Below are positions 1 to 34,407 of a stretch of DNA of 35,546 nucleotides, one piece after another. Source of the DNA: a virus (taxonomy: Duplodnaviria; Heunggongvirae; Uroviricota; Caudoviricetes). The stretch is from the IMG/VR virus record IMGVR_UViG_2778261064_000019; one strand, 5' to 3'. Numbering within the stretch: position 1 is the first letter of the stretch; every line of letters begins with the position of its first letter. Position numbers and translations under genes: made by a program. The notes under the pieces are model-generated. The model saw only the letters and a program-made list of their open reading frames with translations, ran no database searches and was not told where the DNA came from.

Positions 1-1200
1 ATGCTGACCGATACCAAACTGAAAAACCTCAAAGCGCGGGAAAAACTTTATAAAGTTGCAGACCGTGATGGGCTGTATGTAACCGTATCTCCCAAGGGAT
101 TGGTGACGTTTCGCTATGACTATCGAATCAATGGTCGTCGTGAAACGTTAACTATTGGTCGCTATGGTGACGGTATTTCTCTGGCGCAGGCGCGCGAAAA
201 ATTAGTGGAAGCCAAAAAACGCGTAAATGCAGGAATATCGCCCGCTGGAGAGAAGCGTGACGGTAAAACAAAGCGAAAAGAAGAAAAGACACTCCACGAT
301 TTTACCGTCAGCTACATGAAACACACCCGGCTGGCGGACAGCACAAGGGCGATGAAGCAAAGCATTATCGACAGAGACATCACGCCAGTATGGGGGCGCA
401 AGCTGCTGTCAGAGATAACCCCCTCTCTCCTACGTGAGTATTGCGACAAGATAAAAGCGCGTGGTGCGCCAGCGACGGCGATTCAGGTTCGCAATATCGT
501 TAGTGCGGTATTTAAGTTCGCCGCGCTTCACGGCGACTATTACCCCAATCCTGCCGAAGAGGTTTTACCGGCTTCAATTGCGACATTCGAAGCGCGCGAC
601 AGGGCGCTCAAGCCAGAGGAGATAGGCTGGTTTTTCAATCAGCTTGAACAAACGGGTACATTACCCACCATCAAGCTGGCCATTAAATTGGTTTTATTAA
701 CGATGGTACGTAAAAGTGAACTGCTGAACGCTCCGTGGGGTGAGGTTAATTTTAATGCCTGCCTTTGGACGATTGACGCCAGCCGGATGAAGGGATCACG
801 GGATCATAATGTTTATCTGTCCCGGCAGGCACAGGACATTCTGATTGCCCTGAAAATGTGCGCAGGAAGCAGTGATTGGGTTTTGCCTTCATGCAATCAG
901 TCGTCGCATAAGACCATGTCGGCGGCGACCTTAAACCGGGTCATTAATCTTACGGTTAAGCAGGCGCAGGAACGGGGGATCAGGCTGGCGTCGTTTTCCG
1001 TTCACGATATGCGCCGAACGGCATCGACGTTATTGCATGAGGCGGGGTTTAATTCCGACTGGATAGAAAAATGCCTCGCGCACGAGGAAAGAAGCGTCAG
1101 AGCCGTTTATAACAAAGCGGAATACGCAGAGCAGCGCCGTGATATGTTGCAGCAGTGGGCGGATATGGTTGATGGGTGGATCAAGCAATACCGCCCGTAA
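1..1200 (+). CDS. int: Tyrosine integrase, P4/CP4-57-like family
   Basis: 399-aa ORF. N-terminus LTDTKLKNLK...DGLYVTVSPKG...FRYDYR is typical of P4-type integrases; C-terminal region HDMRRT...AHEERSVRAVY fits the tyrosine-recombinase catalytic region. ORF starts at the window edge, so the true 5' end and the att site are not visible. Confidence 0.85.
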   Translation: MLTDTKLKNLKAREKLYKVADRDGLYVTVSPKGLVTFRYDYRINGRRETLTIGRYGDGISLAQAREKLVEAKKRVNAGISPAGEKRDGKTKRKEEKTLHDFTVSYMKHTRLADSTRAMKQSIIDRDITPVWGRKLLSEITPSLLREYCDKIKARGAPATAIQVRNIVSAVFKFAALHGDYYPNPAEEVLPASIATFEARDRALKPEEIGWFFNQLEQTGTLPTIKLAIKLVLLTMVRKSELLNAPWGEVNFNACLWTIDASRMKGSRDHNVYLSRQAQDILIALKMCAGSSDWVLPSCNQSSHKTMSAATLNRVINLTVKQAQERGIRLASFSVHDMRRTASTLLHEAGFNSDWIEKCLAHEERSVRAVYNKAEYAEQRRDMLQQWADMVDGWIKQYRP

Positions 1201-1203
1201 GTA

Positions 1204-1458
1204 CTATGCGGGGATCTTGGTACCAGAGCGCTTTGGGACTTTGGCCAGATTTTTCTGTACCGCGTTATCAATATGGTGATGGTTATTTTCCTGCCGTGCT
1301 TTGAGCCAGCGTTCCACTTCCTCTTTGTCCCACGCGACGGCGCGCTTCGTTAGCGCAAAACGTTTGGGAAACAGGCCTTTTTGCTCCAACGCATAAATCG
1401 TACTTTCAGAGAGTGGCACCATCTGTAAAAGCACGTTTTTTCTAATGGCAATTTTCAT
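1204..1458 (-). CDS. AlpA-family HTH regulator / excisionase-like protein
   Basis: 84-aa ORF convergent with int (3-bp gap). Segment STIYALEQKGLFPKRFALTKRAVAWDKEEVERWL resembles AlpA/phage regulatory protein family. Start may be the internal Met at 1422. Confidence 0.65.
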   Translation of the reverse strand: MKIAIRKNVLLQMVPLSESTIYALEQKGLFPKRFALTKRAVAWDKEEVERWLKARQENNHHHIDNAVQKNLAKVPKRSGTKIPA

Positions 1459-2269
1459 TGTTTATTCCTTTAATCCAAAGGCACTCAGTTCTGATAACAG
1501 ATCCTTTTTTACCAGCAGCGGCAGATTGCTTTGTCTCTTTACGCCAGCCGGTTAGCAAATCGTTATACATTTCGGTGTCGTAGCCGCTGATAACCACGCT
1601 TCCTTGTAACCGGGTGACGGTCTCCAGTAAGCGCAGGTGGGCACCATCGTCCATTTCGTGGCGATAATATTTGTTAGTCAGATTACGGGTGCTATGAACA
1701 TACGGCGGATCGACAAAATGCAGCGTGTCGGCGGCGTCATGATCCAGAATACACTGGATGGCATCGCGGTTTTCCACCAGAACCCCTTCAAAACGCTGAC
1801 CAACGGCGGCCAGATTATCGGGCATACGGCTCCAGATGTGTTGGGCCGTTCCACTGGCGCGTTTAGTGTCCAGCCGAAAGCCGGTAGTGCCTTTAGTTGC
1901 CCCGGCAGAACCGAAGCCCATCGTGGCGCGAATCACTAAACGCCTTGCCTGTTCAACAGAATTTTTCCCATAGCGATAGGCCGAAATAAACTCGGTGCGG
2001 GAATAGGGTGTCAGGCTGCAGGCTTCAACCAGTCTTTCGCGCAGTTGTGGGGTACGAAGAACGGCGAACAGGTTAACGACGTCGCCATCCAGATCGTTGT
2101 AAACCTCGGCGTAGCTACGTGGTTTTCTGAGCAGTACGCTGGCTGCACCGCCGAAGGGTTCCACATAGCATCTGTGGGCCGGAAAGTGGCTAATGATCCA
2201 CGGAGCTAGTCGCCACTTGCCGCCGTGGTAGCGGATTGCAGGGTGCTTAATCATCCAGTTTTTCTCCAC
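1442..2269 (-). CDS. DNA N6-adenine methyltransferase (Dam-like, orphan)
   Basis: 275-aa ORF with N-terminal AdoMet-binding motif YVEPFGGAASVLL and catalytic DPPY motif (FVDPPYVHSTRN). No adjacent restriction enzyme gene. Confidence 0.8.
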   Translation of the reverse strand: MEKNWMIKHPAIRYHGGKWRLAPWIISHFPAHRCYVEPFGGAASVLLRKPRSYAEVYNDLDGDVVNLFAVLRTPQLRERLVEACSLTPYSRTEFISAYRYGKNSVEQARRLVIRATMGFGSAGATKGTTGFRLDTKRASGTAQHIWSRMPDNLAAVGQRFEGVLVENRDAIQCILDHDAADTLHFVDPPYVHSTRNLTNKYYRHEMDDGAHLRLLETVTRLQGSVVISGYDTEMYNDLLTGWRKETKQSAAAGKKGSVIRTECLWIKGINNENCH

Positions 2270-2846
2270 GCCGTTCTACGTTCAGGTGTCGCCACTGCAC
2301 CGCAATCCGTTTCATCACCGCATTCCCCTCTGGGATCACCTCCTGCGGCTCCTTCATCAACATGACCCGCCCCCGAATAACGATCAGCGCTTGTTCCAGC
2401 AGGCCATAGTCCAGATAACAGAGATCGGGAATATCCAGTTGCCACACATAGCCATTCCATGCTGAAAGTAGCACTTGCGCGGCGGCGCGTCCGCCGCTGG
2501 TTTCTGTGAGCGCGATTTTGGCAAGTGTATTGACGGCTGCGCCATATTCCTCTGGCGTGACGCGGAGTTTCTGCTGGCTGTTATCTTCTTTTGCCAGCGT
2601 TAATAATCCAATCGGGTGTAATACGCCCAGCTCTTCCATCTTTTCTTTCAATGTTGCAGCTGTATTCCATCCAATTCTGAATTTGCGCTGCAGGCGGCTG
2701 ATACTGATAATGCCTTCCGCCTCGGCCAGTTCGACCGCTTTGGGATAGAGTTCATTGAGCCGATATTCGTAATCAGCGAAGGGCGCACCGCTATTCTCTG
2801 GCAGGCCAGAGAGTGTTTGTGAATTATTTCCAGAGGATTTCATCAT
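2247..2846 (-). CDS. Hypothetical protein with FtsK-gamma-like winged-helix segment
   Basis: 199-aa ORF in the same minus-strand gene string as primase and Dam. Segment ISISRLQRKFRIGWNTAATLKEKMEELGVL resembles the FtsK gamma DNA-binding domain, judged from memory only. Confidence 0.45.
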   Translation of the reverse strand: MMKSSGNNSQTLSGLPENSGAPFADYEYRLNELYPKAVELAEAEGIISISRLQRKFRIGWNTAATLKEKMEELGVLHPIGLLTLAKEDNSQQKLRVTPEEYGAAVNTLAKIALTETSGGRAAAQVLLSAWNGYVWQLDIPDLCYLDYGLLEQALIVIRGRVMLMKEPQEVIPEGNAVMKRIAVQWRHLNVERRGEKLDD

Positions 2847-2856
2847 AATTTCCTTT

Positions 2857-5514
2857 TTAACGTTGAAAAACCCAACACTTCACCGTCGCCGGGCGGCGCG
2901 GTGCGGCTGGGTAACGGCGGTTAAATTCAGCGTTGATGCCGCTGTTAACCGTTCTGACTTCAATAAACTTGTGGGTACGGCTGGTTTTTAGCACTCGCTT
3001 CAAATCGCTGATCGGCGGGATCTGCTGGCGGCGCTCGGTAGCCAGTTGAATAAAGTGGTTAAGGTTAACGGCGATAAGCTGTTCATCGCGCGAGTGGTTG
3101 AGCTGTGGTTCGTCGTCGCCATCGAGGAAGTCGAAAATATCCCAGAACTCCTGCACCAGAGGATGGTCGGCGCTGATGGCCTGTTGGCGCTCCAGACTGA
3201 GGCGGATAAACATTTCTCTGGTCGCCTGTAGCTGCTCTTCCGTGACCGGAATAACCAGCGCCAGCGCGTCGAGCAGCGCCATAAGCTGGGCGTGGTTTTT
3301 AATGATGCGGATATGGCGAATATCTGGGTGGGAGTGAAGTTGCTGCTCGTATAGCGGGATCTGACGGTTAACGCACTCCAGCACGGCCTGTTCCGCCAGC
3401 GCTGCCTTCAGCATAAAGCCGGAAAGCTGTTCTACCGGCAGGCGTTCGAGCTGCTCGGCAGCGACCTTGGTCTGAGTATTCTGGCCGCTGCGGTCGGTGT
3501 ACAGGTGAATAATACGTTCCAGCACCGGGTTAGAGGCGCTAACATCGGCGTTTTGCGCAATCACAATCGCGCCCCGGAACGGCGGTTCATAGGTCTCGTT
3601 GCCGCTGTTACGCAGACCGCGAGAACGCACCGACCGCCCGTTATAGGCGGTTTTCAGCTCTTCCCAATCAAAGCCACGCTGCTTTGCCCCCTCCTGATTA
3701 CGGTCACCCTCGATCAGCACCACCGGCATATTTGCTACCTGCGCAAAGTTGCGCGCGCGGGCGGCCAGCGTTGATTTAGACGGATCGAAACCTTCATAGT
3801 CGCGTCGGCCCAACAGTTTTCAGAGGAACTCTATCAGCGTGGTTTTACCGCTGCCGGGTTCGCCAACGATTTCCAGAAATGGAAAGCTCTTGTGCTTGTC
3901 GCGGATCTGTTCGGCAAACATCGTCCCAAACCAGTACGCCAGCGCCACAAACCCCTTTGCGCCAAACGCCTGCCAGAGTAGCTGGGGCCACTGGCTGTCC
4001 ATCTGTTTTAAATTGTCGTTCAGCGTCAGGCTGACCGACTGGTTCAGGCTTTTAAGGCTAAGTTTGCCCATGTCGAAGAAGTCTTCTTCGTTGAGTGTGT
4101 ACAGCCGACCATCGCGAACGGCCAGATCGTTGAACACGTAAGCGCGGTATTCTTTGCTGTAGCCGATAAAATCAGTGGTCTGGACAGTTTTGATTTTGGG
4201 AAGCTGCTTGAGCAGCAACTTATCTAACTGCTGACTGGTGCCGGTGAAGATGCCGCCCTGCGCGATATGCAGCAGGCGCTTTTTGAATTCTGAGCCGCTG
4301 GAAAGTTGGGAGCCGGTGAAGGTGTTTTTTATCGGTGGAGTGTCGTCGGGGAAGTTAATGCGAAAGTAATACCAGCTTTCGTCGGTAATGGTGTTGGCCT
4401 GATAGTAGAGGGTGGTCGGGTAGCAGTTGGCTATCTCAACAACGGCGGCTGACTCCTGTAGCGCTTTATGTTTGGCTTCTTCTTCGTCCAGCTCCTCTTT
4501 GCCGTTATACATCACGTTATCAAAGGCACGCATATAACGGTCAATATCCAGCTTGAACCAGTACAGGCGGCTGTCGAACTCGAAGTGAAACTCTTTGCGT
4601 TCGGTACGCTCATGCATCAGTAATGCTTTGGCATTCGGATTGGGAGCGATCAACAGTGAACCGTAGTAACGATATTTTTTAATCAGATCCGGGTTTAGCC
4701 GATCGCGCTGGTGCAAATCGTTCCAGTCCAGCTTGGTGCGGGAATAGGGCGTTTGTGCGGCGGTGGAAAGCCAGCCGTCGTCGCGGCTGCGTTTTACCCA
4801 GCGGCGGGTGTAATTCATGCCCGCTTTGTCGTTATCCAGCGCCCAGACCAGTAAAGGACGCTTTTTATCCACGAACAGCGCGGCCAGTTGGCTTAACGCC
4901 TGCGCCGGATAGTTGTTACAGGTCATCAGGGAAACGGCGGCAATGCCGTGGTGGTGCAGGGCGATAGCGTCAAAAATGCCCTCAACCAGCCAGATCTCCT
5001 GCTGTTCTTCCAGCTTAAGCGTTGGCAATTGCCACCATAGCCCGCTGTAAGCGCCGTGAAAATTGGCTTTGCGATCGCCGAAACGCTGTGGGCGGTCAAC
5101 GATCCGCTCCCACCACACGCCGTCAGCCAGCGGGAAACGCACAGTGGCCGAGCCGAGATCGCGCCGTGCGTCATAGTAGTTCTCTTGAGCGTAACAGTTA
5201 CGGAGCAGCGAAAGGTCAAAGCCGCGCATCTCGCGCAGGTAGGCATCGGCGGCGGCCTGTGGGTTTTCCGGGGTTGGGGGATATCTGTCTGACCAGCTTT
5301 CAAATAGATCCGGGTACACCTCTTTGATATGGATTTCGGCATTGCATTTATTCAGGCGACCGCAGCGCAGTACCCACGGGCTGATGGCGTAGGTGTACAG
5401 CTCTTTTTTCTGGCAGTCCGGGCAGACGCCCTGCCGCAGCCAGTCGCCCTGTTCTTTAAAGGAAAAATCGGCTAGCAGTCGCCGCGTAATTTCCTGATGA
5501 AGTTGTGGTTGCAT
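2857..5514 (-). pseudogene. P4 alpha-like primase-helicase interrupted by an in-frame TGA (fragments 3820..5514 and 2857..3813)
   Basis: The two ORFs are in the same frame, separated by a single TGA at 3820..3822 (translation ...GEPGSGKTTLIEFL*KLLGRRDYEGF...). N-terminal Cys-rich zinc-binding motifs (CPDCQKK, CGRLNKC) and a Toprim-like segment (LVEGIFDAIALHHHG); Walker A (GEPGSGKTT) sits just before the stop, and the helicase region continues after it. Confidence 0.6.
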
Positions 5515-5602
5515 TGCCAGTACCTTTATTCAGGTAATACTTACCCGTCGCATAGACACGTTGTTTATGCGTTGTGGTTGTGAGTCTTTTATTTACTGAG
5601 CG

Positions 5603-5833
5603 TTACGCGATTTTCTGCTTTTGCAGAAATTGCCCGCGTGTGGATAGCGGTATGTGTATCTTAGGATTCGGGCAACCGCTGGGTACTACCGTTCCCATCA
5701 CGGTCTCCATCGCGATAAATGAAAACGAACAGTTAACGTTCTTGCACTGGTAATAGAGCTTACGTACCAGCGGTGACATATATTCGCTGCTGCGAATTAT
5801 CGCCTTACCGTCGCAGTGTGGGCATTTCATCAT
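5603..5833 (-). CDS. ogr: Ogr/Delta-family zinc-finger late-gene transcriptional activator
   Basis: MMKCPHCDGKAIIRSSE...YYQCKNVNCSFSF matches the Cys4 motif of P2 Ogr. Start set at ATG 5833 (AGGAG 7 nt upstream) rather than the longer ORF start at 5851. Monomer size (76 aa) is Ogr-like, not the duplicated P4 Delta. Confidence 0.85.
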   Translation of the reverse strand: MMKCPHCDGKAIIRSSEYMSPLVRKLYYQCKNVNCSFSFIAMETVMGTVVPSGCPNPKIHIPLSTRGQFLQKQKIA

Positions 5834-6156
5834 GTCCGATCTCCTTACCACTTTTAACTAACTGAAACACTAACGCTTTTCGTTAACGGACTGACGAAAT
5901 AGTGTGATGCCGTTCAAAAAAATGATTCTTGCCATGCTGGACATCGAACGGTTCTGCTCCAGCGCTAATGCTTACAGTTCCGCGATTTCAGCGGGGAGCA
6001 GACGCATTGCCACCGGTTTGTTCGACATCACCCCGCGGGGTGCTCGTGAGCGTAAGACGTTCTCATTTGTTTTCATGGTGGTATATTGTGGTTATTAACA
6101 TTACACAATCTATAATTCCCTCAATTGAGTGAATTGTCAATGGTAATTATATCCAA
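5834..6156. promoter_or_regulatory. Divergent intergenic control region between ogr (minus) and the XRE gene (plus)
   Basis: 323-bp non-coding gap between divergently transcribed genes. Contains a 14-bp perfect palindrome CACCCCGCGGGGTG (6029..6042), palindrome TCAATTGA (6121..6128), TATAAT (6111..6116) and TTGTCA (6135..6140). Promoter assignment is not resolved. Confidence 0.35.
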
Positions 6157-6495
6157 ATGAAAGAATTTGGCATCCGTTTGAAGGAAGAACGTATCCGACT
6201 TGGCCTTGATCAAGACGGCTTTGGACAACTTGGGGGCGTGAAGAAAAACGCACAAAGTAACTATGAGAATGGACTGCGCAAGCCGGACAGTGACTATCTT
6301 GCTGGCATAGCGGCAGCGGGAGTTGATGTTCTGTATGTTCTAACAGGCAACCGCACGCCTGTGGCTACGTTGTCCAGTAAAGAGAGTGTGTTGGTGGAGA
6401 ACTATCGTTCTGCTACGCCAGAACACCAGTCCACCCTTGACACGGTTAGCGCTGCGCTTGCGCAACCGGGAGTAGGGAAAGCAGCTAAGGGATAA
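6157..6495 (+). CDS. XRE-family helix-turn-helix regulator (candidate prophage repressor or cargo regulator)
   Basis: 112-aa ORF; N-terminal HTH pattern (IRLKEERIRLGLDQDGFGQLGGVKKNAQSNYENGLRKP) is typical of Cro/CI-type regulators. Divergent from the ogr-primase string, directly upstream of the AT-rich operon. Confidence 0.7.
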   Translation: MKEFGIRLKEERIRLGLDQDGFGQLGGVKKNAQSNYENGLRKPDSDYLAGIAAAGVDVLYVLTGNRTPVATLSSKESVLVENYRSATPEHQSTLDTVSAALAQPGVGKAAKG

Positions 6496-6535
6496 CGAGT
6501 AGAATGAATTTGGTTATTGTCTGTATGGAGGCAAA

Positions 6536-7108
6536 ATGAAGTTGAATAATCTGGTTGCTCTTTACAGGAACATGACAGAGCAAAAATTGGATAGGGTTAA
6601 ATTCCCATACAGACACAATAATTTACATTTTGATGTATTTTTCTTTATTGATGGAAAACCGTTTGAGCTTCTTTTCGGAGCATTAGGCGCTAATCTTTGC
6701 TTTCGTCTAAAAGTCGAGAAGGGATTCGTCATAAATCCTAATCTGGGAAGTGAGACTTATAAAGAATTATGCAAGGCGCTAGGTTTGAAATATGACCCTG
6801 CCAATCCATTTAGAACAAGTAAGTTTTTTGAAGATTTTGATGGGAAAATCCCTACATCGGTTACTGTTAAGAATAAGGCAAAATATACTGATATTGCTGT
6901 GCATGTCAGGGATGTTGAAGAAGCAGACAGAATATATTTCTGTGGATGGAAAAACAACAATGAAGAAAAGAGTCATGTTACTGAAGATAATTTAAAGAAA
7001 ACGAAAGAGTTTTTAGGGTATCAGGCTTTTCTTGTTTGTAAGGAAAAGAATATTAGCAGTAGATGGACTGATTTAGAAAATAAAGCAAAAGATTTTTATT
7101 TACCATAG
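6536..7108 (+). CDS. Hypothetical protein, AT-rich cargo operon gene 1
   Basis: 190-aa ORF with GGAGG-like RBS before the ATG. Strongly AT-biased codon usage unlike the flanking phage genes. No family recognised. Confidence 0.6.
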   Translation: MKLNNLVALYRNMTEQKLDRVKFPYRHNNLHFDVFFFIDGKPFELLFGALGANLCFRLKVEKGFVINPNLGSETYKELCKALGLKYDPANPFRTSKFFEDFDGKIPTSVTVKNKAKYTDIAVHVRDVEEADRIYFCGWKNNNEEKSHVTEDNLKKTKEFLGYQAFLVCKEKNISSRWTDLENKAKDFYLP

Positions 7109-7122
7109 GATTGTGAGGTTAT

Positions 7123-8271
7123 ATGTCTGATATTTCATTAGGGTGCGTGGTTGTTCATAGGTTGATAAAAGAGCAACATAAAGATTTCGATCACTCAAAA
7201 CCATATAGTCGCCGTGATACGGTTCTTGACCGAAATAATGAAATCGTAATTAAACTAGTGTCCAGTATAGCCGCATTGTATGGTAAAAAATCTAATAGCT
7301 CGCATTATGGTATATTTAATTTAGATGAAACACGCAGGGGGCCTTTTCCAGCGGAATTTGATAAATATCGGAATGATACATCCAAGAAGTTAGACGATGA
7401 ATTGTTTATAGGATTATCAAAAAATGTTATGCATCAGTTATATATTGAGGCAAAGGATCGACCTGCTGCATCAGGAGGATTACTTCTTTTTGCTGATTAT
7501 ATCAGTAAATCCGTGCGTTACTTTCTTATTGCAATGATTAAGCAAAAGGAAGGTATAGTTATTAGTGATAAATTAGAGCCAAAGGAGTTAGAGCATCTTG
7601 ATCTGGCAAAACTAAACCAGGCGGCACGAATAAACTATGATTTGTATGATAAATATATTTCCGCTGATGAGAATGAAAGACAGGATGTTAATTATTTAAG
7701 TTTTGTTAGTCCCAGTTCTAACCAGACAACTTCAGGGTATTTCATTACTGCCTTAGGTTGTGATAAAGGTAATACATCAACTAAAGCTACGAGTAATTTA
7801 ATTAATGAATCTTTTAACTTCTTCAGAAATCATCAAGAATTAAAGGATAATGCCCGTAAATTTAAAAATGAAATTATTGAGTATTTATTCGATTGTTCTG
7901 AAAATAACATTTCAGCTAAGCTCTCTGTTGTTAGTGAGATGGCGGCGAAGCATATGGTTAATTTAGAAGATGACATTAAAGATAAATTGTCAGAAGAATT
8001 ATATGCTCATTTGAATAGTGAAAGTATTCGTGTGCCTGTGGAATTTAGGGTAAGCAAATCAGTAGTTAAGAAAAACAGAAATATTAAATATACAAGTGAT
8101 AATGTTAATTTTGAGTTTAAATCTAGTTTACTAGGCAATACTCTTGATAATGAGATATGCTATAATAAGAAAACTGGACATTTAACTTTTACTCGGATTA
8201 CTCCTGAGAAAAAAAGTGAAATAGCTCAATTGCTTGATGAGTTAATAAAAGAAAGAAATAGCGAAAAATAA
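7123..8271 (+). CDS. YejK/NdpA-like (NA37 family) nucleoid-associated protein homologue, cargo gene 2
   Basis: 382-aa ORF, 14 bp after gene 1 with a GTGAGG RBS. Full-length pattern similarity to E. coli YejK as recalled: MSDISLGCVVVHRLIK vs MSLDINQIALHQLIK; ASGGLLLFADYISKSVRYFLIAMI vs [25 protein letters not shown]. Not verified by search. Confidence 0.6.
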   Translation: MSDISLGCVVVHRLIKEQHKDFDHSKPYSRRDTVLDRNNEIVIKLVSSIAALYGKKSNSSHYGIFNLDETRRGPFPAEFDKYRNDTSKKLDDELFIGLSKNVMHQLYIEAKDRPAASGGLLLFADYISKSVRYFLIAMIKQKEGIVISDKLEPKELEHLDLAKLNQAARINYDLYDKYISADENERQDVNYLSFVSPSSNQTTSGYFITALGCDKGNTSTKATSNLINESFNFFRNHQELKDNARKFKNEIIEYLFDCSENNISAKLSVVSEMAAKHMVNLEDDIKDKLSEELYAHLNSESIRVPVEFRVSKSVVKKNRNIKYTSDNVNFEFKSSLLGNTLDNEICYNKKTGHLTFTRITPEKKSEIAQLLDELIKERNSEK

Positions 8272-8282
8272 GGTTGCTTAAT

Positions 8283-8912
8283 ATGTCATGTTTTGAAACG
8301 GTTGTTGAGCTTTTCAGATATGTAGGGCGTCCTAAATTTGATGCTATTAATAATCGTTTTTCAGCAACTATTTCTTATGATGCTCATATATATGAACTCT
8401 TAGTTTCTTTGCAACCTCATACAGCGTGGGGAGAAATTGAAGAGATTGTCATTGATGATGTGGATATAGATGTTGATGATAGCCTTCCCGCTAAAGGAAC
8501 ATCAATAACACTGACAATCTCTATATCAACTGGAGCTAGTGAGTCATTTTTTATCGATATTAAAGATCTAATTCAAAAGTCTCCGATGTTAAATAGAGGT
8601 ATTTTAAGAAAGTCTTTTTACTTGGTTGAGGAAGATTTTTATTTTAATGAAGGAATGGTTGAGGGATTAGCAAAAATACCAGAACTATCTGTTTTAAAGA
8701 ATCTTTGTGATTTTATTTTATGTCTATCAAAAGTTGCACACTACAGCAATAGTAAAAGTGATGATGTATGCCATAAGTTAGTTTTCTTGAAAAATACTAA
8801 TGCTAAGTCATTACCTTTAATTATTGAAACTAATGTTGATTATTCACTTCTTTTAACAGGTATTAAGGATTTAAAAATCATCGAATCTTTTTCTGATGAA
8901 AAAAAGCTATAA
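8283..8912 (+). CDS. Hypothetical acidic protein, cargo gene 3
   Basis: ORF track starts at TTG 8274; the first ATG is at 8283, about 11 nt after the gene 2 stop. Contains acidic stretch EEIVIDDVDIDVDDS. No family recognised. Confidence 0.55.
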   Translation: MSCFETVVELFRYVGRPKFDAINNRFSATISYDAHIYELLVSLQPHTAWGEIEEIVIDDVDIDVDDSLPAKGTSITLTISISTGASESFFIDIKDLIQKSPMLNRGILRKSFYLVEEDFYFNEGMVEGLAKIPELSVLKNLCDFILCLSKVAHYSNSKSDDVCHKLVFLKNTNAKSLPLIIETNVDYSLLLTGIKDLKIIESFSDEKKL

Positions 8913-8956
8913 CGGATGATAATTATTTTGAGCGAAAAGGGATTTTCATTAATACG

Positions 8957-9538
8957 GTGGTCGATTTTCTTGAATCAATCGATGTAAAGAAACAGTTTCA
9001 TTTTTTATTCTGTGAGTGGGATGAATTTCTAAAACTATACCATAATAACCTCGGTGTATATCTTAGTGGTTTTTCATTTCATAAAGTAAGAAAGGAAGTG
9101 GCAGAGGCAGAAGCTAATTTAGCTGAGCGTTTTTCAAAAATAATGTCAGACATGATAGCTAAGCTTTTAGGTATTCCTGTTTCTTTGGTTGCTACTTTTG
9201 GCATGATAAAATTAAATACCCTGCCGGAAATGTTAGTGGTTTTTTTAGGTGTATTGCTCACGTCGATAATTATGTTTTTTATTGTAAGAAGTCAATACAC
9301 ACAGTTTAGGATGATTTGTGATGCTAAAGATATTATATTTTCCCCATTAGTGAAAAAATCTGTAGGTTATACAGAAGATTTGAAAAAATTAGTATGCAAT
9401 GCAAAGGATAATTTAGACAAAAATCAGGTCATGTTAAATCGTTACCTTCTTTTCTTTCAATGCTTATGCTGGATTCCGACAGCCTTAGGTGGTGGAATGA
9501 TCTTAATGGCTATTATGGTTCATTTAGGATTACTATAA
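8957..9538 (+). CDS. Predicted multi-pass membrane protein, cargo gene 4
   Basis: Hydrophobic segments IPVSLVATFGMI, MLVVFLGVLLTSIIMFFIV and YLLFFQCLCWIPTALGGGMILMAIMVHLGLL. Track start is a GTG at 8957, so the true start is uncertain. Stop codon overlaps the gpD stop convergently. Confidence 0.5.
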   Translation: MVDFLESIDVKKQFHFLFCEWDEFLKLYHNNLGVYLSGFSFHKVRKEVAEAEANLAERFSKIMSDMIAKLLGIPVSLVATFGMIKLNTLPEMLVVFLGVLLTSIIMFFIVRSQYTQFRMICDAKDIIFSPLVKKSVGYTEDLKKLVCNAKDNLDKNQVMLNRYLLFFQCLCWIPTALGGGMILMAIMVHLGLL

Positions 9539-10633
9539 ACTTAATTCCATTTCTAATGCGGTGACATAACCAGTACCGCCATCCAACGTATGCACGCACC
9601 GCGTAATCACCCACGCGGTGCCATCAATTTCCGCCTTAAACCCCTTCACCTGCAGCGGTAATTCCGGGAACAAATCGGGCCGTCCACGCGCAAGATTCAG
9701 GCTGAACGTTGCCGCGCCGCGCTGTAGCTGCTCCCACGCGCTTTTTGCCGCTCTGTAGGCGTTATTTTTGTTGGCATAGGTGTGGCGCAGCACCTTGATA
9801 TTTCCCTCTTCGCCAACCATCACGTTATCAGCATTGAATGAGGCGTCTGACGGCGGAGATTCTGTTGGTTGCGTTTGTGGACGGTTTTTCCGTGTCTTGC
9901 GCTTCATGTCAGTGGACTGCTTTTTTGCCTGCCGTGTATCCAGCCAGTAGGCCGTCACACCGGTATACGCCTCCCTGTCCGCGATGCTGAACCGGTGGCT
10001 GTCGCCGTCCTCGCGGGTAATGGTTGCGACCGGCAGCGGTTTGCCGCTGGCACTTTTACCGGAACCTGTCGGCATTAGCAGCAGAGCATCATTTTTCACG
10101 CAGGCGATAGCGCCGTGCAGTTGCGCCAGCCGGGTCAGGAAGGAGGCATCGGATTCGTTAGTCTGGTCAACGTGCTCAATGGCGATCCCAGCCAGCTCGC
10201 CGCTGACGGTTGATTCCAGCTTATGACGCGCCGCCACGGTTTGCACAATCGCGCCCAGCGTCGCATCATGGTAGCTCTGTTCCCGTTTAACGTTCAGCGA
10301 ATCGCGGAAATCGGCGCTGCGGGCGCGGAGGCTGAGTACGTCCGGTGCGCCGCTGTGCTCCAGTTCGTCCACTGTGAAGACATTCTGGTGCATCACGCCG
10401 TCACCCTTCCAGCCTAGAGAAACCGTTAGCTTTTCGCCCTTTGCCGGAAACGCCAGCAGGCCGTCGCTGTCGTCCAGTTCGAGCTGCAGTTCGTCGGCCT
10501 CAAAGCCCCGGTTGTCGGTGATACGCAGGCTGATTAAGCGGTTGTCCAGATTCCGCGTAATGTCCTTACCGTTCAGCACCACGCTGTACTCCGGCTGCGG
10601 CTGGGCGTTTAAGAGTGCGTTTAACATCGTCAT
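9533..10633 (-). CDS. D: P2 gpD-like tail protein (late control D)
   Basis: 366-aa ORF at the end of the T-U-D string, in the order and size expected for P2 D. Confidence 0.8.
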   Translation of the reverse strand: MTMLNALLNAQPQPEYSVVLNGKDITRNLDNRLISLRITDNRGFEADELQLELDDSDGLLAFPAKGEKLTVSLGWKGDGVMHQNVFTVDELEHSGAPDVLSLRARSADFRDSLNVKREQSYHDATLGAIVQTVAARHKLESTVSGELAGIAIEHVDQTNESDASFLTRLAQLHGAIACVKNDALLLMPTGSGKSASGKPLPVATITREDGDSHRFSIADREAYTGVTAYWLDTRQAKKQSTDMKRKTRKNRPQTQPTESPPSDASFNADNVMVGEEGNIKVLRHTYANKNNAYRAAKSAWEQLQRGAATFSLNLARGRPDLFPELPLQVKGFKAEIDGTAWVITRCVHTLDGGTGYVTALEMELSL

Positions 10634-11058
10634 AGTCCGTCTACCATCGTGATGATGTCGCCCAGCAAGCCACCCAGCTTCGGCGGATCGACACGTTTTA
10701 ACGCCAGCGTAAACTCAATGCGCCGGGCCGCACCGTCGCGAAAAAAGACGCTCCGGGTGACGTTCAGACTCTCAATCACAAACCAGCCATGCAGCGATCC
10801 GGTGCCTTCAATCAGCGGCCAAGCCATCCCCTGATCGGCCATCTTTCGCAGGAAAAACAGGGTAAATCGCCCGCCGGTCAGTTCCGGCAACAGCACGCCG
10901 TTTAGCGTAATGGTTTCGTCACCCACGCCGATAAACTGGCTGGCCGGACGTAGCCCCACGCGGGAACTGGCAGGATGCCGCCACGCTACGGCGTGCTGCA
11001 TATCCTGATAGGGCAGGGTTTTCAGGCTGAAGACGAACAGCCCCAGTACCATCATCAT
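10630..11058 (-). CDS. U: P2 gpU-like tail protein
   Basis: Start set at the ATG-ATG-ATG triplet ending at 11058 (MMMVLGLFVFSLK...), preceded by AAGGAGG. The longer ORF to 11166 would overlap the tape measure gene. Confidence 0.75.
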   Translation of the reverse strand: MMMVLGLFVFSLKTLPYQDMQHAVAWRHPASSRVGLRPASQFIGVGDETITLNGVLLPELTGGRFTLFFLRKMADQGMAWPLIEGTGSLHGWFVIESLNVTRSVFFRDGAARRIEFTLALKRVDPPKLGGLLGDIITMVDGL

Positions 11059-11068
11059 AAGAGCCTCC

Positions 11069-13918: not shown

Positions 13919-14088
13919 GATTCAACACCGCTGCGCTGGCGGGCCTGCTCCCGCCAGTAAAGGGTTTCGCCAAGGGTTAATGCGTCCATCGCGGATAGTG
14001 GCCAATGGAAGATGACGGCTATGTCGCCTTGAGCCTCCTCTATGCGTCCGGGGTATCCGTTGCTTCCGGCGAGGTCTGCGGCAAAAAA
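13915..14088 (-). other. Programmed -1 frameshift site (T_TTT_TTG at 14082..14088) and E' extension giving the E+E' fusion
   Basis: Minus-strand mRNA reads GGU UUU UUG. The -1 frame downstream stays open for about 57 codons (FFAADLAGSNGYPGRIEEAQGDIAVIFHWPLSAMDALTLGETLYWREQARQRSGVES) and ends at a TGA overlapping the tape measure ATG. Confidence 0.7.
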
Positions 14089-14336
14089 CCGACAAGCGCC
14101 GTACCGAAAGCCGTCAGGTCGATAAAATCCAGTTGCGCCACCTCATGCTTATTCAGCGGCGGTGCGGTGATGCGCGGTAGAACGCTGGTGAGTGCATCTA
14201 CGTTAAGGCTTAACAGCTCCACCAGACTGACACCGCGCAGGTCGCCGCCCAGTGGTTTACGGATCTGGAACTCGACAAATTCGGTTTCGCCGCGTTTCAG
14301 GGGAGTATTCAGGGTAACGGTTTTACGTTCGCTCAT
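14040..14336 (-). CDS. E: Tail assembly chaperone gpE (zero-frame product)
   Basis: 98-aa ORF between the tail tube and tape measure genes. Contains a TTTTTTG slippery site near its 3' end. Confidence 0.8.
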   Translation of the reverse strand: MSERKTVTLNTPLKRGETEFVEFQIRKPLGGDLRGVSLVELLSLNVDALTSVLPRITAPPLNKHEVAQLDFIDLTAFGTALVGFLPQTSPEATDTPDA

Positions 14337-14345
14337 GGTTCATCC

Positions 14346-14861: not shown

Positions 14862-14875
14862 GGTGCGTTCTCCTG

Positions 14876-16054: not shown

Positions 16055-16124
16055 GAGGCGAGCCTCCATCAGGTCAATAAATGACGATGGTGGCACAGAG
16101 CGAAAAGGGCGGTGACGGCTTCCA

Positions 16125-16147
16125 CTTGTAACCACTGGCACTACAAG
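16125..16147. promoter_or_regulatory. Dyad CTTGTA-N11-TACAAG upstream of FI (candidate Ogr-responsive late promoter element)
   Basis: Inverted repeat with imperfect extended arms (GGCTTCCACTTGTA / TACAAGCAGAAGCG, 16117..16155), 70-100 bp upstream of the FI start. Same half-sites and spacing at three other late-operon positions. Confidence 0.5.
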
Positions 16148-16159
16148 CAGAAGCGGTTT

Positions 16160-16918
16160 TTAATTCAGGATAATCAGTTCTGATGTGGTGCTGGCTGGCT
16201 TTCCACCTACGGTATAGCGAATCCCTACCGTTGAGAATGTCAGGCCGTGGAAGATATCGCGCATTTCCGGGATGTCGTTAACCGAGATAATCATCCGGCC
16301 CTGCATGGTGCGCGCCAGCTCTGCCATACGCTGGTACTGCTCAAGGCCAAATGGTACGCCGTAGCCTTCGGTTTTCCAGTATGGTGGGTCGCAGTAGAAC
16401 AGGGTATGCGGGCGGTCATAGCGGCGAATACAGTCGGCCCAGTCCAGATTTTCAATGCAGACGCGCGCCAGCCGCAGATGGGCGGCGGATAAATCCTCTT
16501 CCATACGCAGCAGGTTCAGGCGCGGCGGTGAGGTGGTGGCGGTACCGAACGTGCGACTTTCCACTTTGCCGCCGAATGCCAGCTTTTGCAGATAGTAGAA
16601 GCGCGCCGCGCGCTGGATATCGGTCAGCGTTTCTTCCGGGGTGATCTGGAGCCAGCGGTACATTTCGCGGCTGACCAGCGACCATTTAAACTGGCGGACA
16701 AACTCTTCTAAATGGTGCTGAAGTACGCGGTAGAGGTTGGTAACGTCACCGTTGATATCGTTCAGCACCTCGGCCTGTGCGGGCTGTTTCATAAAGAACA
16801 ACGCTGCCGCCCCGCAGAACGGTTCAACGTAGCAGCGGTGTTTGGGAAACAGTGGCAGAATGTGTTTTGCCAGCCTGCGCTTACCGCCGATCCACGGAAT
16901 AACGGGTAACGTATTCAA
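16160..16918 (-). CDS. DNA N6-adenine methyltransferase (Dam-like), second copy
   Basis: 252-aa ORF with YVEPFCGAAALF AdoMet motif and DPPY motif (FYCDPPYWKTEGYG). Sits between the tail fibre assembly gene and FI, the position of the P2 Z/fun locus. Confidence 0.8.
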   Translation of the reverse strand: MNTLPVIPWIGGKRRLAKHILPLFPKHRCYVEPFCGAAALFFMKQPAQAEVLNDINGDVTNLYRVLQHHLEEFVRQFKWSLVSREMYRWLQITPEETLTDIQRAARFYYLQKLAFGGKVESRTFGTATTSPPRLNLLRMEEDLSAAHLRLARVCIENLDWADCIRRYDRPHTLFYCDPPYWKTEGYGVPFGLEQYQRMAELARTMQGRMIISVNDIPEMRDIFHGLTFSTVGIRYTVGGKPASTTSELIILN

Positions 16919-17382
16919 ATTGTCAATTTTCCAGACCGACTGCTGACCAACGCATACAGCAGATTAGGAGACCAGCGCCAACTATCGCGCAGGTGCAGAA
17001 ATTCGGCGCAGAACTCGCTGCAAAACAGGCGTTCCTGTTTACCCTGACTGAGTAACACAAAACCCATGGCGCCCAGCCAGTCGTAACCTTTATCGTCGTG
17101 CTGACGAAAAAAGGTTTCCAGTGCCAGCGGATCGGCGTTGATCGGGAGTAAATCCCATTTCTCAATCGGCAGCGGCATTCGTTTGCTGCGCACGCCTTTA
17201 TCCCGTACCGATGATGAGTAACAGATAAACAGGCCATCCGGCAGGCGTTCGACCAGTTCGCAGTGAGAGTAAGGGCCGCGCGTGACCTGTCGCGTCAACC
17301 AGTCGGAGAGCCGGGCAAGGCTGAAAAAGCGTTCAGCCCGGCCACGGTAGAACGCCATGTAAACCTGACTCATGGTTGCCAT
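16915..17382 (-). CDS. Hypothetical protein (Z/fun-position cargo)
   Basis: 155-aa ORF translationally coupled to the neighbours (4-bp overlap with Dam, 13-bp overlap with the upstream gene). Cys/His-containing segments (CELVERL, LFCSEFCAEFLH); no family recognised. Confidence 0.5.
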   Translation of the reverse strand: MATMSQVYMAFYRGRAERFFSLARLSDWLTRQVTRGPYSHCELVERLPDGLFICYSSSVRDKGVRSKRMPLPIEKWDLLPINADPLALETFFRQHDDKGYDWLGAMGFVLLSQGKQERLFCSEFCAEFLHLRDSWRWSPNLLYALVSSRSGKLTI

Positions 17383-18077
17383 CCTGATGAGTAGTCGTAA
17401 CCCATAACCGCCTGCACCTCCGTCAACGCTTCAACGGCGGCAATATGCTGCTGGGCAGCGGCGAACAGGCGCATATCGTGCGCCATTGTTTCGGTTTCAA
17501 ACCGGGCGGCGATCTCGTTGGTTAGTTCAATCAGGTTGTGATTTTTGGTCTGCCACATTAAGCCTGCCGGTATTTGTTTAGCCACGCCCATTTTGGTGAG
17601 CGAGAGCTGCTGGATGCGGCTGTTAGCGTCGCTGTGGAAATGGTGATTATCGATGATGATGTAGTCAGCGGTGATTCGATCGCGATACTGCTTTATTTCT
17701 GCCACCTTTGCCTGTCGGGCTTTTTCGATATCGGGCTGCCAGCGTTTGCCGTCCCAACGGACAAAGGCGTTATCGGGCTTCAGCAGAGTGACGTTATCCG
17801 GCAATGGCCCCAGATGATGAAGCTGTACCTCACTGCCCGCATCGGTATCAAACGCGGTTTTACCGCGATGATCTTCTACCGCAAGCCATGTTTCTCCGTT
17901 GAATGTCAGGGCAAAGCCGCTCTGGCATTCGGGCGGTTCGATAGTGGTACAGCATTCCGGTAAGCCGGTGTTGGGGGCGATATAGGCGTCGCTGACGCCG
18001 ATAAATTCCTGAGTATCTGCCGCGTAGTTAAAGATGCGCAGGGTTTGCGGTTCGTCGGAAAATGCGAATGTGCTCAT
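17370..18077 (-). CDS. Putative tail fibre assembly protein (gpG position)
   Basis: 235-aa ORF directly after the tail fibre gene with a 4-bp overlap. Assignment is by position only. Confidence 0.5.
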
Positions 18078-21843: not shown

Positions 21844-21866
21844 CTTGTAGGATAATGGGCTACAAG
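21844..21866. promoter_or_regulatory. Dyad CTTGTA-N11-TACAAG upstream of gpV (candidate late promoter element)
   Basis: Inverted repeat CTTGTAG-N9-CTACAAG about 50-65 bp upstream of the gpV ATG. Confidence 0.5.
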
Positions 21867-21905: not shown

Positions 21906-22241
21906 TTAACCGTGCGCAGCCTTCATCAGTGTATCGTTAATCCACTGGTTAACGCTTTTACCGGAGACTTCTGCCGCAACGTTAATGGCAGAGTGAATTT
22001 CAGGTGGAATACGCAGGCTGATTTTTCCGCTGGCCGGACGCAACGGCTCCCGGCCCCGTTCCTCGCAGTAAGCCAGATAGTCGTCTACCGCCTCTTCAAA
22101 CGCTTTACGCAGATCGGCAACATTATCGGCATGAAAGCCAATGACATCCCGAATGCCTGCAACGTGACCAACAATGCATTGATCTTCATCGCTGTATTCA
22201 ATTTTTGCGGCATAGCCTCTATATGTCATGGTATTCATCAT
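21906..22241 (-). CDS. hicB: HicB-family antitoxin
   Basis: 111-aa ORF 4 bp-overlapped with the upstream hicA-like gene. C-terminal RHH-like segment (KISLRIPPEIHSAINVAAEVSGKSVNQWINDTL). Confidence 0.75.
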   Translation of the reverse strand: MMNTMTYRGYAAKIEYSDEDQCIVGHVAGIRDVIGFHADNVADLRKAFEEAVDDYLAYCEERGREPLRPASGKISLRIPPEIHSAINVAAEVSGKSVNQWINDTLMKAAHG

Positions 22242-34138: not shown

Positions 34139-34407
34139 CCGAAGTCCCCACGGACTTTGGTATATATAGATAGGTTAAAAAGTAGCCGTTATGTTTGCCA
34201 GCTATTTACTTCCCATTCTTCCACTGGCCAGCATGTTAATATGCCCGGTAATGATAACTAGTTGCCATTGGGTTACTTTCTTCTGTGGACGGTAAAACTG
34301 ACGGTAAATTGGGTTGTGGGTCTCGATTTAGATTAGTAAAATCAAGTGATTAAGTCGACTGTAGATAATCGAGTGGGAATGATTTGATCCCTGCACTATG
34401 AATTAGC

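Follow-up and report, generated by a model that had tools for sequence, protein, structure and literature searches.

The D12 class of N6-adenine DNA methyltransferases includes E. coli Dam (EcoDam), T4 Dam and DpnM, in which motif I, a recognition domain and DPPY follow one another in this order. The DPPY motif is typical of N6-adenine enzymes, and in EcoDam–DNA structures the residues K9, N120, L122, R124, P134 and Y138 contact GATC. The modification genes of the Mu mom and Hia5/Hin1523/NMA1821 systems are late genes placed last, after the tail-fibre genes (Mom itself is not a methyltransferase), and phage P2 has a moron slot, Z/fun, between G and FI.

D12 orphans closest to those described here are Pseudomonas phage B3 ORF48, Burkholderia phage phiE125 gp27 and a gene of Vibrio phage VP882, all at the distal end of the late region; B3 ORF48 adjoins Com at the mom position, and the phiE125 gene is located after the lysis cassette. 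The methylase genes of Hafnia phage Meifeng, Yersinia vB_YenM phages and Pseudomonas phage F116, which are lambdoid-style or other temperate phages, are the last or near-last genes of early operons and are closely followed by an HTH/excisionase gene and the integrase gene. The activity of B3 ORF48 was still untested in 2011 (PMC3299994), and a search of the literature yielded no characterized recognition sequence for the subfamily of B3 ORF48 and phiE125 gp27 and no characterized specificity for the Meifeng, vB_YenM and F116 enzymes. M.EcoMIV, a D12 orphan of an E. coli ST131 prophage, has no assigned motif and is silent (PMC4659465), and there are further precedents for prophage methylases that are silent in lysogens (PMC4659465; PMC4996451; PMC4393132).

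The window analyzed here, a stretch of viral DNA of 35,546 nucleotides, encodes one relative of each kind, termed MT1 and MT2. The pair is real, already annotated and an ordinary feature of anti-restriction type, as few kinds of phage counter-defence gene are commoner than orphan methyltransferases. The element is a P2-like phage with two orphan D12 enzymes, one in an early and one in a late operon; with somewhat more confidence than doubt, we propose that they would methylate the phage's own DNA in lytic growth, probably at different motifs.

Two transcription units of a P2-like prophage

The element is a P2-like prophage of ~34.6 kb at the 3' end of E. coli guaA, with guaA and yfgI as flanking host genes in the RefSeq annotation; it is rare in E. 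coli. The probable attR core is deduced from a 14-bp identity with L001 4764-4777, a stretch that spans the guaA stop codon. In the RefSeq annotation of an identical prophage, the P2-type late genes are ordered Q, P, O, N, M, L, X, lysis, R, S, V, W, J, I, H, G, FI, FII, E, T, U and D. An Ogr/Delta activator is present alongside this late set, as in P2-like (Peduoviridae-type) temperate phages, and the sheath/tube region has DNA similarity to RSA1 and P2-like phages. The features of the integration site and the early region are as follows.

1204..1458, minus strand: AlpA-family regulator/excisionase (PF05930, E 7e-13; phrog_66 and phrog_2790, excisionase)
1442..2254, minus strand: MT1, orphan D12-class DNA adenine methyltransferase (PF02086, motif I and DPPY, RefSeq)
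1464..2842, no strand assigned: mosaic block relative to E. coli sibling prophages (blastn against sibling L006)
2247..2846, minus strand: DUF7673 protein extended at its N terminus by an FtsK-gamma domain (PF24720, PF09397)
2857..5514, minus strand: early-operon replication gene of Toprim primase/helicase-like type (Toprim_2)
6112..6173, minus strand: promoter-like sites facing the early operon (two 10/12 sigma-70 matches, consensus matches only)
34371..34384, plus strand: probable attR core GAGTGGGAATGATT, which repeats the final guaA codons in direct orientation

MT1 is the fourth gene in the early operon (ogr, primase/helicase, DUF7673, MT1, alpA), and the same order around the gene is seen in an Edwardsiella version of the prophage. 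The promoter-like sites facing this operon are divergent from an HTH repressor-like gene (6157-6495, plus strand). The genes are tightly packed: the alpA start overlaps the MT1 stop by 17 nt, the DUF7673 stop overlaps the MT1 start, and no promoter or terminator was found in the MT1 flanks. The coordinates first given for MT1, 1442..2269, are those of the maximal ORF, which begins at GTG 2269; as a gene start, this position gives way to ATG 2254 (MIKHPAIRYHGGK...), which is probably the true one because homologues and the RefSeq entry begin there and a GGAG Shine-Dalgarno sequence lies 9 nt upstream. The resulting protein has 270 aa (RefSeq WP_103253369.1, 'DNA adenine methylase'). The upstream DUF7673 protein has 123-125 aa in sibling and Edwardsiella prophages, where it lacks the FtsK-gamma part. 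The replication gene is interrupted in the window by a TGA codon at 3820-3822 (W565*), located after the GEPGSGKT Walker A motif, where the RefSeq codon is TGG; the gene is intact in E. coli 24A16CRGN010 and in E. ictaluri. Because of this nonsense codon, the lytic programme and both enzymes may never be effectively used in the window copy.

The second enzyme is encoded in the late region, in the following context.

16127..16145, no strand assigned: late-promoter dyad TGTA-N11-TACA, in the 105-bp gap from the MT2 stop to the tail sheath gene
16160..16918, minus strand: MT2, orphan D12-class DNA adenine methyltransferase (PF02086, RefSeq WP_103253379.1)
16915..17382, minus strand: 155-aa ORF of the phrog_1128 'moron' family (PHROGs E 1e-53), translationally coupled to MT2
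17370..18077, minus strand: tail-fibre assembly protein, P2 G equivalent (DUF4376, Caudo_TAP; phrog_1807, phrog_105)
21846..21864, no strand assigned: late-promoter dyad TGTA-N11-TACA, upstream of gene V

Exactly four TGTA-N11-TACA dyads occur in the window, against 0.25 expected, and all four are upstream of late operons; the promoter assignments, early and late, are consensus or dyad matches. The dyad at 16127..16145 starts the next late operon (FI-FII-E-T-U-D), so that the operon before it, which runs V-W-J-I-H, tail-fibre assembly, 155-aa ORF and MT2, has MT2 at its 3' end. The dyad at 21846..21864 would be the start of the operon ending in MT2, and neither a promoter nor a terminator was found from gene V to MT2. 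MT2 has 252 aa, and its TTG start at 16918 overlaps the stop of the upstream ORF (TTGA overlap) with no Shine-Dalgarno sequence. The 155-aa ORF, which lies downstream of the tail-fibre assembly gene, has no match in Pfam, PADLOC or PDB and shares 40% identity with SuMu gp51, which is placed between the tail-fibre assembly gene and a com-methylase pair. MT2, but not MT1, occupies the mom-equivalent slot, that is, the last late gene after the tail-fibre genes.

The view in the preliminary description that neither gene has an adjacent restriction gene holds: the neighbours of MT1 (the AlpA-family regulator/excisionase and the DUF7673 and FtsK-gamma protein) and of MT2 (the tail-fibre assembly protein, the 155-aa phrog_1128 protein and the tail sheath) match no nuclease and no defence system in Pfam, PADLOC or PHROGs, and the RefSeq annotation of the whole prophage includes no restriction enzyme. 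As no cognate endonuclease is adjacent, both enzymes are orphans rather than parts of Type II restriction-modification systems.

Family membership, recognition segments and ancestry

Two Dam-family ORFs had been proposed for this element, and both, which are on the minus strand, are borne out by PF02086 matches (D12 class N6-adenine DNA methyltransferase) well above the gathering score of 22 bits: 72.7 bits for MT1 (E 5e-20) and 101.9 bits for MT2 (E 6e-29). An FxGxG-like motif I (EPFGGAAS in MT1, EPFCGAAAL in MT2) is N-terminal to the DPPY motif IV (D182 of MT1, counted from ATG 2254; D176/D177 of MT2, according to the numbering of its start codon), the recognition domain separates the two motifs, and the motif I and DPPY residues are invariant in the family alignments of both enzymes. 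The two proteins share 32% identity over 233 aa (BLASTP E 1e-29) and are therefore old paralogues, in agreement with the initial view that they are clearly different and not a recent duplication. The term 'Dam-like' stands for the class and fails for the subfamily: scores for TIGR00571 (NCBIfam Dam subfamily) are 64 for MT1 and 105.6 for MT2, below the cut-off of 114.85, and those for PRK10904 (Dam equivalog) are 36.9 and 62.3, far below the cut-off of 441. By these profile scores, both enzymes are better called D12 class than Dam-like.

Assignment to other described groups was also considered. T1/HP1-type Dam was rejected for MT1 and MT2, which have no similarity to it in BLASTP; comparison with T1 Dam, of the T1/HP1/VT2 type, gave E 0.57 for MT1 and 0.021 for MT2, in short segments only. 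A Hia5-type non-specific enzyme was suspected for MT2 from its relatives in Mu-like phages. This family assignment was rejected because the com-linked SuMu methylase is dissimilar, a com gene is absent and B3 ORF48 is distant from Hia5. Against SuMu gp53, a proxy taken as Hia5-type by its position, both enzymes gave only short motif matches in BLASTP (E 0.008-0.04), and the 500 nt preceding MT2, like those preceding five homologues, contain no Com-like ORF (two CxxC pairs), with SuMu as a positive control. In addition, B3 ORF48 is not among the 1,000 closest relatives of Hia5 (Drozdz et al.).

The target-recognition regions, whose alignment had been proposed as a check, are unlike: the segment is near-invariant within each subfamily, differs between MT1-type and MT2-type proteins and, in both cases, differs from that of EcoDam. 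At the positions of EcoDam K9, N120, L122, R124, P134 and Y138, MT2 has P, G, V, S, P and N in a HMMER alignment of low reliability in the hairpin; the alignment of MT1 covers the N-terminal 62 residues only, with R at the K9 position. As the EcoDam alignment is unreliable exactly in the recognition region, the loss of the GATC-contact residues is suggestive only. Different target specificities, one of the two possibilities raised for the pair at the outset, are plausible, given that each subfamily has its own near-invariant segment and the GATC-reading residues of Dam are not kept. The annotation 'DNA adenine methylase' covers at least two subfamilies, with motifs that are probably not simply GATC. 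AlphaFold models had low confidence (pLDDT 61 and 68 overall, <50 in the recognition loops); a reading of specificity from structure was dropped because such models, with disordered recognition loops, are unusable at the residue level. Foldseek searches with these low-confidence models returned only EcoDam, DpnM, T4 Dam and Mcbe1 at E < about 1e-5, with TM values of 0.6 for MT1 and 0.45 for MT2.

Both genes are present in the same slots in the Edwardsiella ictaluri version of the prophage. Identity to the Edwardsiella orthologue is 90% for MT1 (dN/dS 0.061) and 95% for MT2 (dN/dS 0.070), and dN/dS is 0.055-0.078 for the integrase, primase and sheath in the same comparison; judging from these ratios, both enzymes are maintained under purifying selection. 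Synonymous divergence from Edwardsiella is, for each of MT1 and MT2, like that of its own neighbours, which, together with the presence of both genes in Edwardsiella, points to a long co-inherited pair rather than a recently assembled one. Compositional foreignness was not detected, and the GC content of each gene matches that of its module.

Sibling prophages in E. coli are polymorphic for the presence of MT1. MT2 is kept and MT1 is absent in three of four related E. coli prophages, with alpA and int intact at 96-100% identity, so that MT1 is dispensable at least in E. coli. The mosaic block consists of 1464-2259 (the MT1 gene), absent from the siblings, 2260-2563, only 87.5% identical, and 2564-2842, replaced there by 51 bp; its junctions have the last six codons, NNENCH*, in common and AAAC microhomology. 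The MT1 block was found in one of 5,426 complete E. coli genomes. All family-invariant residues of MT1 are kept, including the C-terminal G251, R255, E257, C258 and W260.

Elsewhere, the early operons of lambdoid-style phages carry MT1-type genes at their int-proximal end, and MT2-type genes occur in phiE125, in VP882 and, at the right or tail-fibre-distal end, in Mu-like phages. Genes 75-90% identical to those of the pair are carried, for example, by strains of E. ictaluri, Pectobacterium or Yersinia. The MT2-type subfamily (B3 ORF48/phiE125 gp27) has >8,000 database relatives. In IMG/VR, a contig end lies less than 1.5 kb away for 43 of 80 MT2-type genes, and 15 of the 80 are preceded by the tail-fibre assembly gene and/or the 155-aa ORF in the same order. 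A gpD-anchored census of P2-like relatives (8 + 7 loci) found the Edwardsiella pair and is too small for frequencies. The occurrence of 28 Burkholderia records in both match lists suggested phiE125-like phages with one enzyme of each type; this idea was rejected, as phiE125 has a single MT2-type gene alongside an unrelated PF01555 enzyme, and the lists overlap through cross-detection of that gene. The other initial suggestion, origin from different ancestral elements, thus survives in part: phage mosaicism, the distinct homes of the two gene types and the MT1 polymorphism speak for it, but the co-inheritance of the pair with the Edwardsiella ictaluri relative speaks against recent assembly.

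Possible roles of the two enzymes

In the self-methylation reading favored above, two D12 subfamilies, with one enzyme each, would be wired into two transcription units of the lytic cycle. MT1 would be made once the prophage is derepressed and replication begins, a timing suggested by its early-operon place and own Shine-Dalgarno sequence. MT2 would be made late and at a low level, before packaging, as suggested by its position at the end of the late operon and its weak TTG start overlapping the upstream stop. As neither gene has a nuclease partner or a promoter of its own, both enzymes would be silent in the lysogen, and the phage's own DNA would be methylated in lytic growth. Progeny with methylated DNA would then escape restriction in the next host, and the marking of two motifs would provide cover against different restriction systems; MT1 and MT2 most likely mark different motifs, as far as their recognition segments indicate. 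What the analysis shows directly is the identity and family of the enzymes, their intact motifs, the gene order, the orphan status, the conserved pair in Edwardsiella and selection of the purifying kind; expression timing, anti-restriction role and different specificities are what we infer.

It is conceivable, but unlikely, that both enzymes are redundant GATC-specific equivalents of Dam, brought into separate modules through mosaic ancestry, which would ensure full GATC methylation whatever the Dam status or capacity of the host, as for T2/T4, P1 and T1. Both belong to the D12/Dam superfamily, and their only solved relatives are the GATC enzymes EcoDam, DpnM and T4 Dam; REBASE-type homology predictions for Salmonella prophage alpha-class enzymes are commonly GATC; and a cloned Bibersteinia prophage enzyme methylated GATC, with off-target activity. 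The prophage also shows no avoidance of GATC (137 sites, observed/expected 0.77), although GATC and palindrome statistics are uninformative on specificity. However, the sub-threshold Dam profile scores, the lack of similarity to T1/HP1-type GATC Dam and the unmatched EcoDam K9, N120, L122, R124 and Y138 argue against a shared GATC target, and two unlike recognition segments, each near-invariant in its family, are unexpected for one motif. A rather smaller chance is given to one or both enzymes, MT2 above all, being relaxed or almost sequence-independent adenine methyltransferases analogous to mom, Hia5 or M.EcoGII. Such enzymes would afford blanket protection against many restriction enzymes, and the weak TTG start, which lacks a Shine-Dalgarno sequence, and translational coupling would hold a toxic activity low. 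MT2 occupies the slot in which Hia5, Hin1523, NMA1821 and M.Btr192IV are promiscuous, a Com-type translational regulator accompanies its homologue in B3 (PMC3299994), and prophage methylases are often promiscuous and silent (PMC4659465). By contrast, MT1 and MT2 match the com-linked SuMu methylase only in short motifs, the B3 enzyme falls outside the closest Hia5 relatives, MT2 and its five homologues lack an upstream Com-like ORF, and the strongly conserved MT2 recognition loop is expected of a sequence-reading enzyme.

Mainly regulatory methyltransferases, rather than anti-restriction devices, seem improbable. MT1, beside alpA/int, might set the methylation of promoters of the phage or the host, of replication or packaging sites or of excision/integration control regions; MT1-type genes recurrently adjoin xis/alpA-int modules, and Dam methylation is reported to influence Salmonella prophage reintegration (PMC12455584). 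Yet no methylation-sensitive site was identified, siblings with intact alpA and int manage without MT1, and the end of the early operon may simply be a permissive cargo site. Most improbable of these alternatives is that one enzyme has no present function and is a passenger in decay, for which MT1 in E. coli would be the likeliest candidate. The absence of MT1 from most of the related E. coli prophages, the replacement of its native C-terminal tail by six codons overlapping alpA and the truncated replication gene in the window copy would fit decay, but the intact invariant residues, the low dN/dS against the Edwardsiella copy and the intact reading frame and Shine-Dalgarno sequence do not.

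The self-methylation reading also has a stronger form, which we hold to be unlikely: a timed, two-layer self-methylation by two uncharacterized D12 specificities, with the MT2/B3-ORF48 subfamily possibly a second, independently evolved broad-specificity family. If so, MT1 would methylate during early replication and MT2 just before packaging, and the MT2/B3-ORF48 subfamily would be a possible alternative to Hia5 or M.EcoGII for chromatin footprinting. Near-identical prophages with both genes or with MT2 only, together with a cross-genus relative with both, provide a natural comparison from which the benefit of a second methyltransferase to a temperate phage could be gauged.

Comparison with known systems

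MT2 is 66-72% identical to the enzymes of Pseudomonas phage B3 (ORF48), Burkholderia phage phiE125 (gp27), Vibrio phage VP882 and PhiKM, and its full-length identity to the first three is 65-72%. It shares with the B3, phiE125 and VP882 enzymes the D12 class, orphan status and position at the distal end of the late region, and differs from them in being carried by a P2-like myophage, in a slot between tail-fibre assembly and sheath genes, without com and with a coupled 155-aa ORF. Two phage architectures that are unrelated to each other thereby have a member of the large and widespread MT2-type D12 subfamily at the mom-equivalent position. MT1 is 51-77% identical to the methylases of Meifeng, the vB_YenM phages and F116, which have the same early-operon placement as MT1 in phages that, unlike its own element, are not P2-like.

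E. coli Dam, T4 Dam and DpnM are the best matches by sequence among solved structures, at about 17-24% identity, with the Pfam family and motif order of MT1 and MT2; the GATC-reading hairpin residues of E. coli Dam are not conserved in MT1 and MT2, according to a low-reliability alignment. The genomic logic of MT2 is that of Mu mom and Hia5/Hin1523/NMA1821, and the SuMu order (tail fibre-TFA-phrog_1128-com-methylase) has the phrog_1128 neighbour in common with it, but no close sequence relationship to these systems was detected and MT2 is without the Com regulator. Among P2-like phages, Burkholderia KS5 has com and a DNA methylase between tail-fibre assembly and tail sheath, the slot of MT2, and Burkholderia KL3 has two methylases (Lynch et al., 2010; PMC3091744). 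The methylases of both these phages belong to the PF01555 (N4/N6) or C5 type, whereas MT1 and MT2 are both D12; and the second KL3 methylase is part of an EcoRII-type restriction-modification module, whereas MT1 and MT2 are both orphans.

Two D12-class methyltransferase genes in a P2-like prophage

A P2-like prophage fills nearly all of the window: positions 1-18792 are 100% identical to the annotated RefSeq prophage of E. coli 24A16CRGN010, located between guaA and yfgI. A related element is present in four of 5,426 complete E. coli genomes. The guaA stop codon is covered by a 14-bp sequence, GAGTGGGAATGATT (4764-4777 in the comparison locus L001), which is directly repeated at 34371-34384. 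This sets the right end of the element at 34371-34384 and places its left end roughly 230 bp ahead of the window's first position; the repeat, with its overlap of the stop codon, is probably the att core. Upon integration, the guaA 3' end is restored by the phage, and an Edwardsiella ictaluri prophage uses the same site. Besides the complete set of P2 late genes, RefSeq annotates an Ogr/Delta activator, a toprim primase/helicase and an integrase, together with two genes named 'DNA adenine methylase'. The latter correspond to two genes termed here MT1 and MT2:

1442-2254 (-): MT1, Pfam PF02086 (D12 class), 72.7 bits
16160-16918 (-): MT2, Pfam PF02086 (D12 class), 101.9 bits

Both scores exceed the PF02086 cut-off of 22 bits, and motif I followed by DPPY is found in each protein, so the two Dam-family ORFs of the preliminary description are real. 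Their identity of 32% indicates ancient paralogues, in agreement with its claim of clear divergence without recent duplication. The MT1 ORF itself stands, but the end at 2269 proposed there marks only where its longest reading frame meets a first GTG; in RefSeq and in homologues the protein starts at the ATG at 2254, which is preceded by GGAG. MT1 is flanked by genes for a DUF7673 protein, which has an FtsK-gamma domain, and for a regulator/excisionase of AlpA type (PF05930); next to MT2 are the genes for tail-fibre assembly, for the tail sheath and for a 155-aa protein assigned to phrog_1128. No nuclease or defence-system match is found for any of these neighbours, consistent with the reported lack of an adjacent restriction gene. 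The methylases are an ordinary, already annotated feature, correctly observed and reasonably interpreted; that interpretation is refined by their early/late wiring, a mom-like slot, conservation in Edwardsiella and MT1 polymorphism.

Predicted early and late wiring

MT1 is contained in a run of overlapping genes:

5603-5833 (-): ogr
2857-5514 (-): primase
2247-2846 (-): DUF7673
1204-1458 (-): alpA

This run sits 3' of promoter-like sites (6112-6173) that point away from a repressor-like HTH gene, and promoter-like or terminator-like sites flanking MT1 are absent. Such wiring would make MT1 an early gene of the lytic cycle. At 3820-3822 (-), the primase/helicase-like gene has a TGA stop in place of the TGG of the RefSeq prophage (W565*), immediately behind the Walker A motif GEPGSGKT; given this stop, the window's prophage copy may be unable to replicate. 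The FtsK-gamma (KOPS-binding winged-helix) domain is N-terminal in the window's DUF7673 protein (2564-2842, -) and absent from the DUF7673 proteins of sibling E. coli prophages (125 aa) and Edwardsiella (123 aa).

Four copies of a TGTA-N11-TACA dyad, and no more, are present in the window, where chance would give 0.25; each is intergenic and upstream of a late operon:

16127-16145
21846-21864
25557-25575
30692-30710

The Ogr-dependent late-promoter element of P2 is TGT-N12-ACA, which the dyad resembles with a spacing one base different. The four dyads are probably binding sites of the phage's Ogr/Delta-type late activator. As MT2 lies between the 21846 and 16127 dyads, it is the last gene of the V-W-J-I-H-G operon; no sigma-70-like promoter is found between gene V and MT2. 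Its TTG start, without a clear Shine-Dalgarno sequence, shares TTGA with the stop of the 155-aa ORF (16915-17382, -; phrog_1128). MT2 would accordingly appear to be a weakly translated late gene of the lytic cycle. Prophage methylases are commonly silent in lysogens, as published methylomes indicate (PMC4659465, PMC4996451, PMC4393132).

The MT2-coupled 155-aa ORF lacks Pfam and PDB matches, has conserved YSHCE and FCSE(F/W)C motifs in common with gp51 of Haemophilus phage SuMu, and is repeatedly found with tail-fibre assembly genes on one side and methylase genes on the other. The annotation of SuMu gp51 seems to be the source of the phrog_1128 label 'enoyl-CoA hydratase/carnithine racemase-like'. 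In the Edwardsiella prophage, no more than the last ~20 codons of the 155-aa ORF can be detected ahead of MT2.

Recognition specificity and conservation

The segment from motif I to DPPY is almost invariant within each family, being RATMGFGSAGATKGTTGFRLDTKR in the MT1 family and YLQKxAFGGKVxxxTFGTATTSPPRxNLLR in the MT2 family. These segments differ from each other, and profile-profile alignment is confident only outside them. In alignments to EcoDam, its K9, N120, L122, R124 and Y138 are unmatched in MT2, and MT1 aligns at the N-terminus only. Both proteins score below the NCBIfam Dam cut-offs and resemble neither T1 Dam nor the com-linked SuMu methylase, and no com gene precedes MT2. The only significant fold matches of the AlphaFold models (pLDDT 61 and 68, too weak for loops) are Dam-family structures. 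Taken together, these features suggest that MT1 and MT2 likely read different, non-canonical motifs. Alternatively, GATC may be the target of both enzymes, or specificity may be relaxed.

The Edwardsiella prophage carries ogr-primase-DUF7673-MT1-alpA-int at guaA, with MT1 90% identical, and its MT2 (95% identical) adjoins the sheath gene. Between the E. coli and Edwardsiella copies, dN/dS is 0.061 for MT1 and 0.070 for MT2, comparable to integrase (0.055), primase (0.061) and sheath (0.078). The dS of each gene is in line with its own module (MT1, 0.87 vs 0.68-1.19 for early genes; MT2, 0.35 vs 0.43 for sheath).

E. coli siblings GMF054 and L725 keep MT2 and the 155-aa ORF without MT1, and CEC15 looks the same as L725 from its coverage pattern. 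Among the 5,426 genomes, the MT1 block is found in one and the MT2 block in four. Relative to the window, the siblings lack 1464-2259, retain 2260-2563 at 87.5% identity and have 51 bp in place of 2564-2842. The six terminal codons NNENCH*, which overlap alpA, are common to the sibling DUF7673 protein and the window's MT1, and the sibling state is most simply read as MT1 deletion from a window-like ancestor, though it may instead reflect module exchange.

Variable cargo and relation to known phages

Only seven single-base differences from the RefSeq prophage precede position 18786. From there, the tail-fibre gene (18786-19339 onward) diverges sharply and is ~400 nt shorter, which suggests host-range module exchange. 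The stretch from the repressor-like HTH gene to gene D includes a low-GC island at 6536-9538 (+) (0.30-0.34 vs about 0.57 in the backbone). It encodes DUF6037, a nucleoid-associated protein of 37 kDa (PF04245) and two ORFs matching two halves of phrog_5023, which look like a split gene; the GMF054 counterpart is a single 1257-nt ORF. L725 has different cargo there, a nucleoid-associated protein and a 'GTP pyrophosphokinase'. The island has no PADLOC matches and resembles a hotspot for variable cargo or defence genes. By correspondence with the RefSeq annotation, the late region contains toxin-antitoxin cargo: HicB/HicA (21906-22501, -) in the interval from V to S and, close to lysis/head genes, a toxin of the Doc family (26794-27171, +). 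The siblings fill the HicAB position differently, L725 with an 'abortive phage resistance protein' and GMF054 with a hypothetical gene, making this another variable slot.

The MT1 and MT2 families each exceed 8,000 database proteins (E <= 1e-10), all generically named. MT1-type genes of Hafnia phage Meifeng and Yersinia vB_YenM phages (76-77% identity) are the last early-operon gene just before xis/int, and 41 of 80 in IMG/VR lie 1.5-4.5 kb from a contig end. MT2-type genes occur in Mu-like PhiKM and B3, phiE125 and VP882 (65-72% identity) and in a Pectobacterium Mu-like prophage (75%); that of B3 (ORF48) adjoins Com, and that of phiE125 (gp27) follows the lysis genes. In IMG/VR, 28/80 lie within 300 bp and 43/80 within 1.5 kb of a contig end, and in 15/80 the gene follows a tail-fibre assembly gene, the 155-aa ORF or both, ordered as in the window. 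In SuMu, the tail-fibre gene is followed by those for the assembly protein, a phrog_1128 protein with 40% identity to the 155-aa ORF, Com and a methylase; Burkholderia P2-like phage KS5 has com and a PF01555 methylase in the interval from tail-fibre assembly to sheath. By these gene orders, the slot that MT2 occupies is one known for cargo and corresponds to the mom position.

D12 matches in the phage collection comprise 252 places in 249 records and 683 places in 676 records, and a second D12 gene lies within 10 kb at 4/80 and 0/80 IMG/VR loci. Two D12 genes per phage, at roughly 1-5%, are thus less common than several methylases, as documented in KL3 and phiE125; the pair is uncommon, but of a kind already known.
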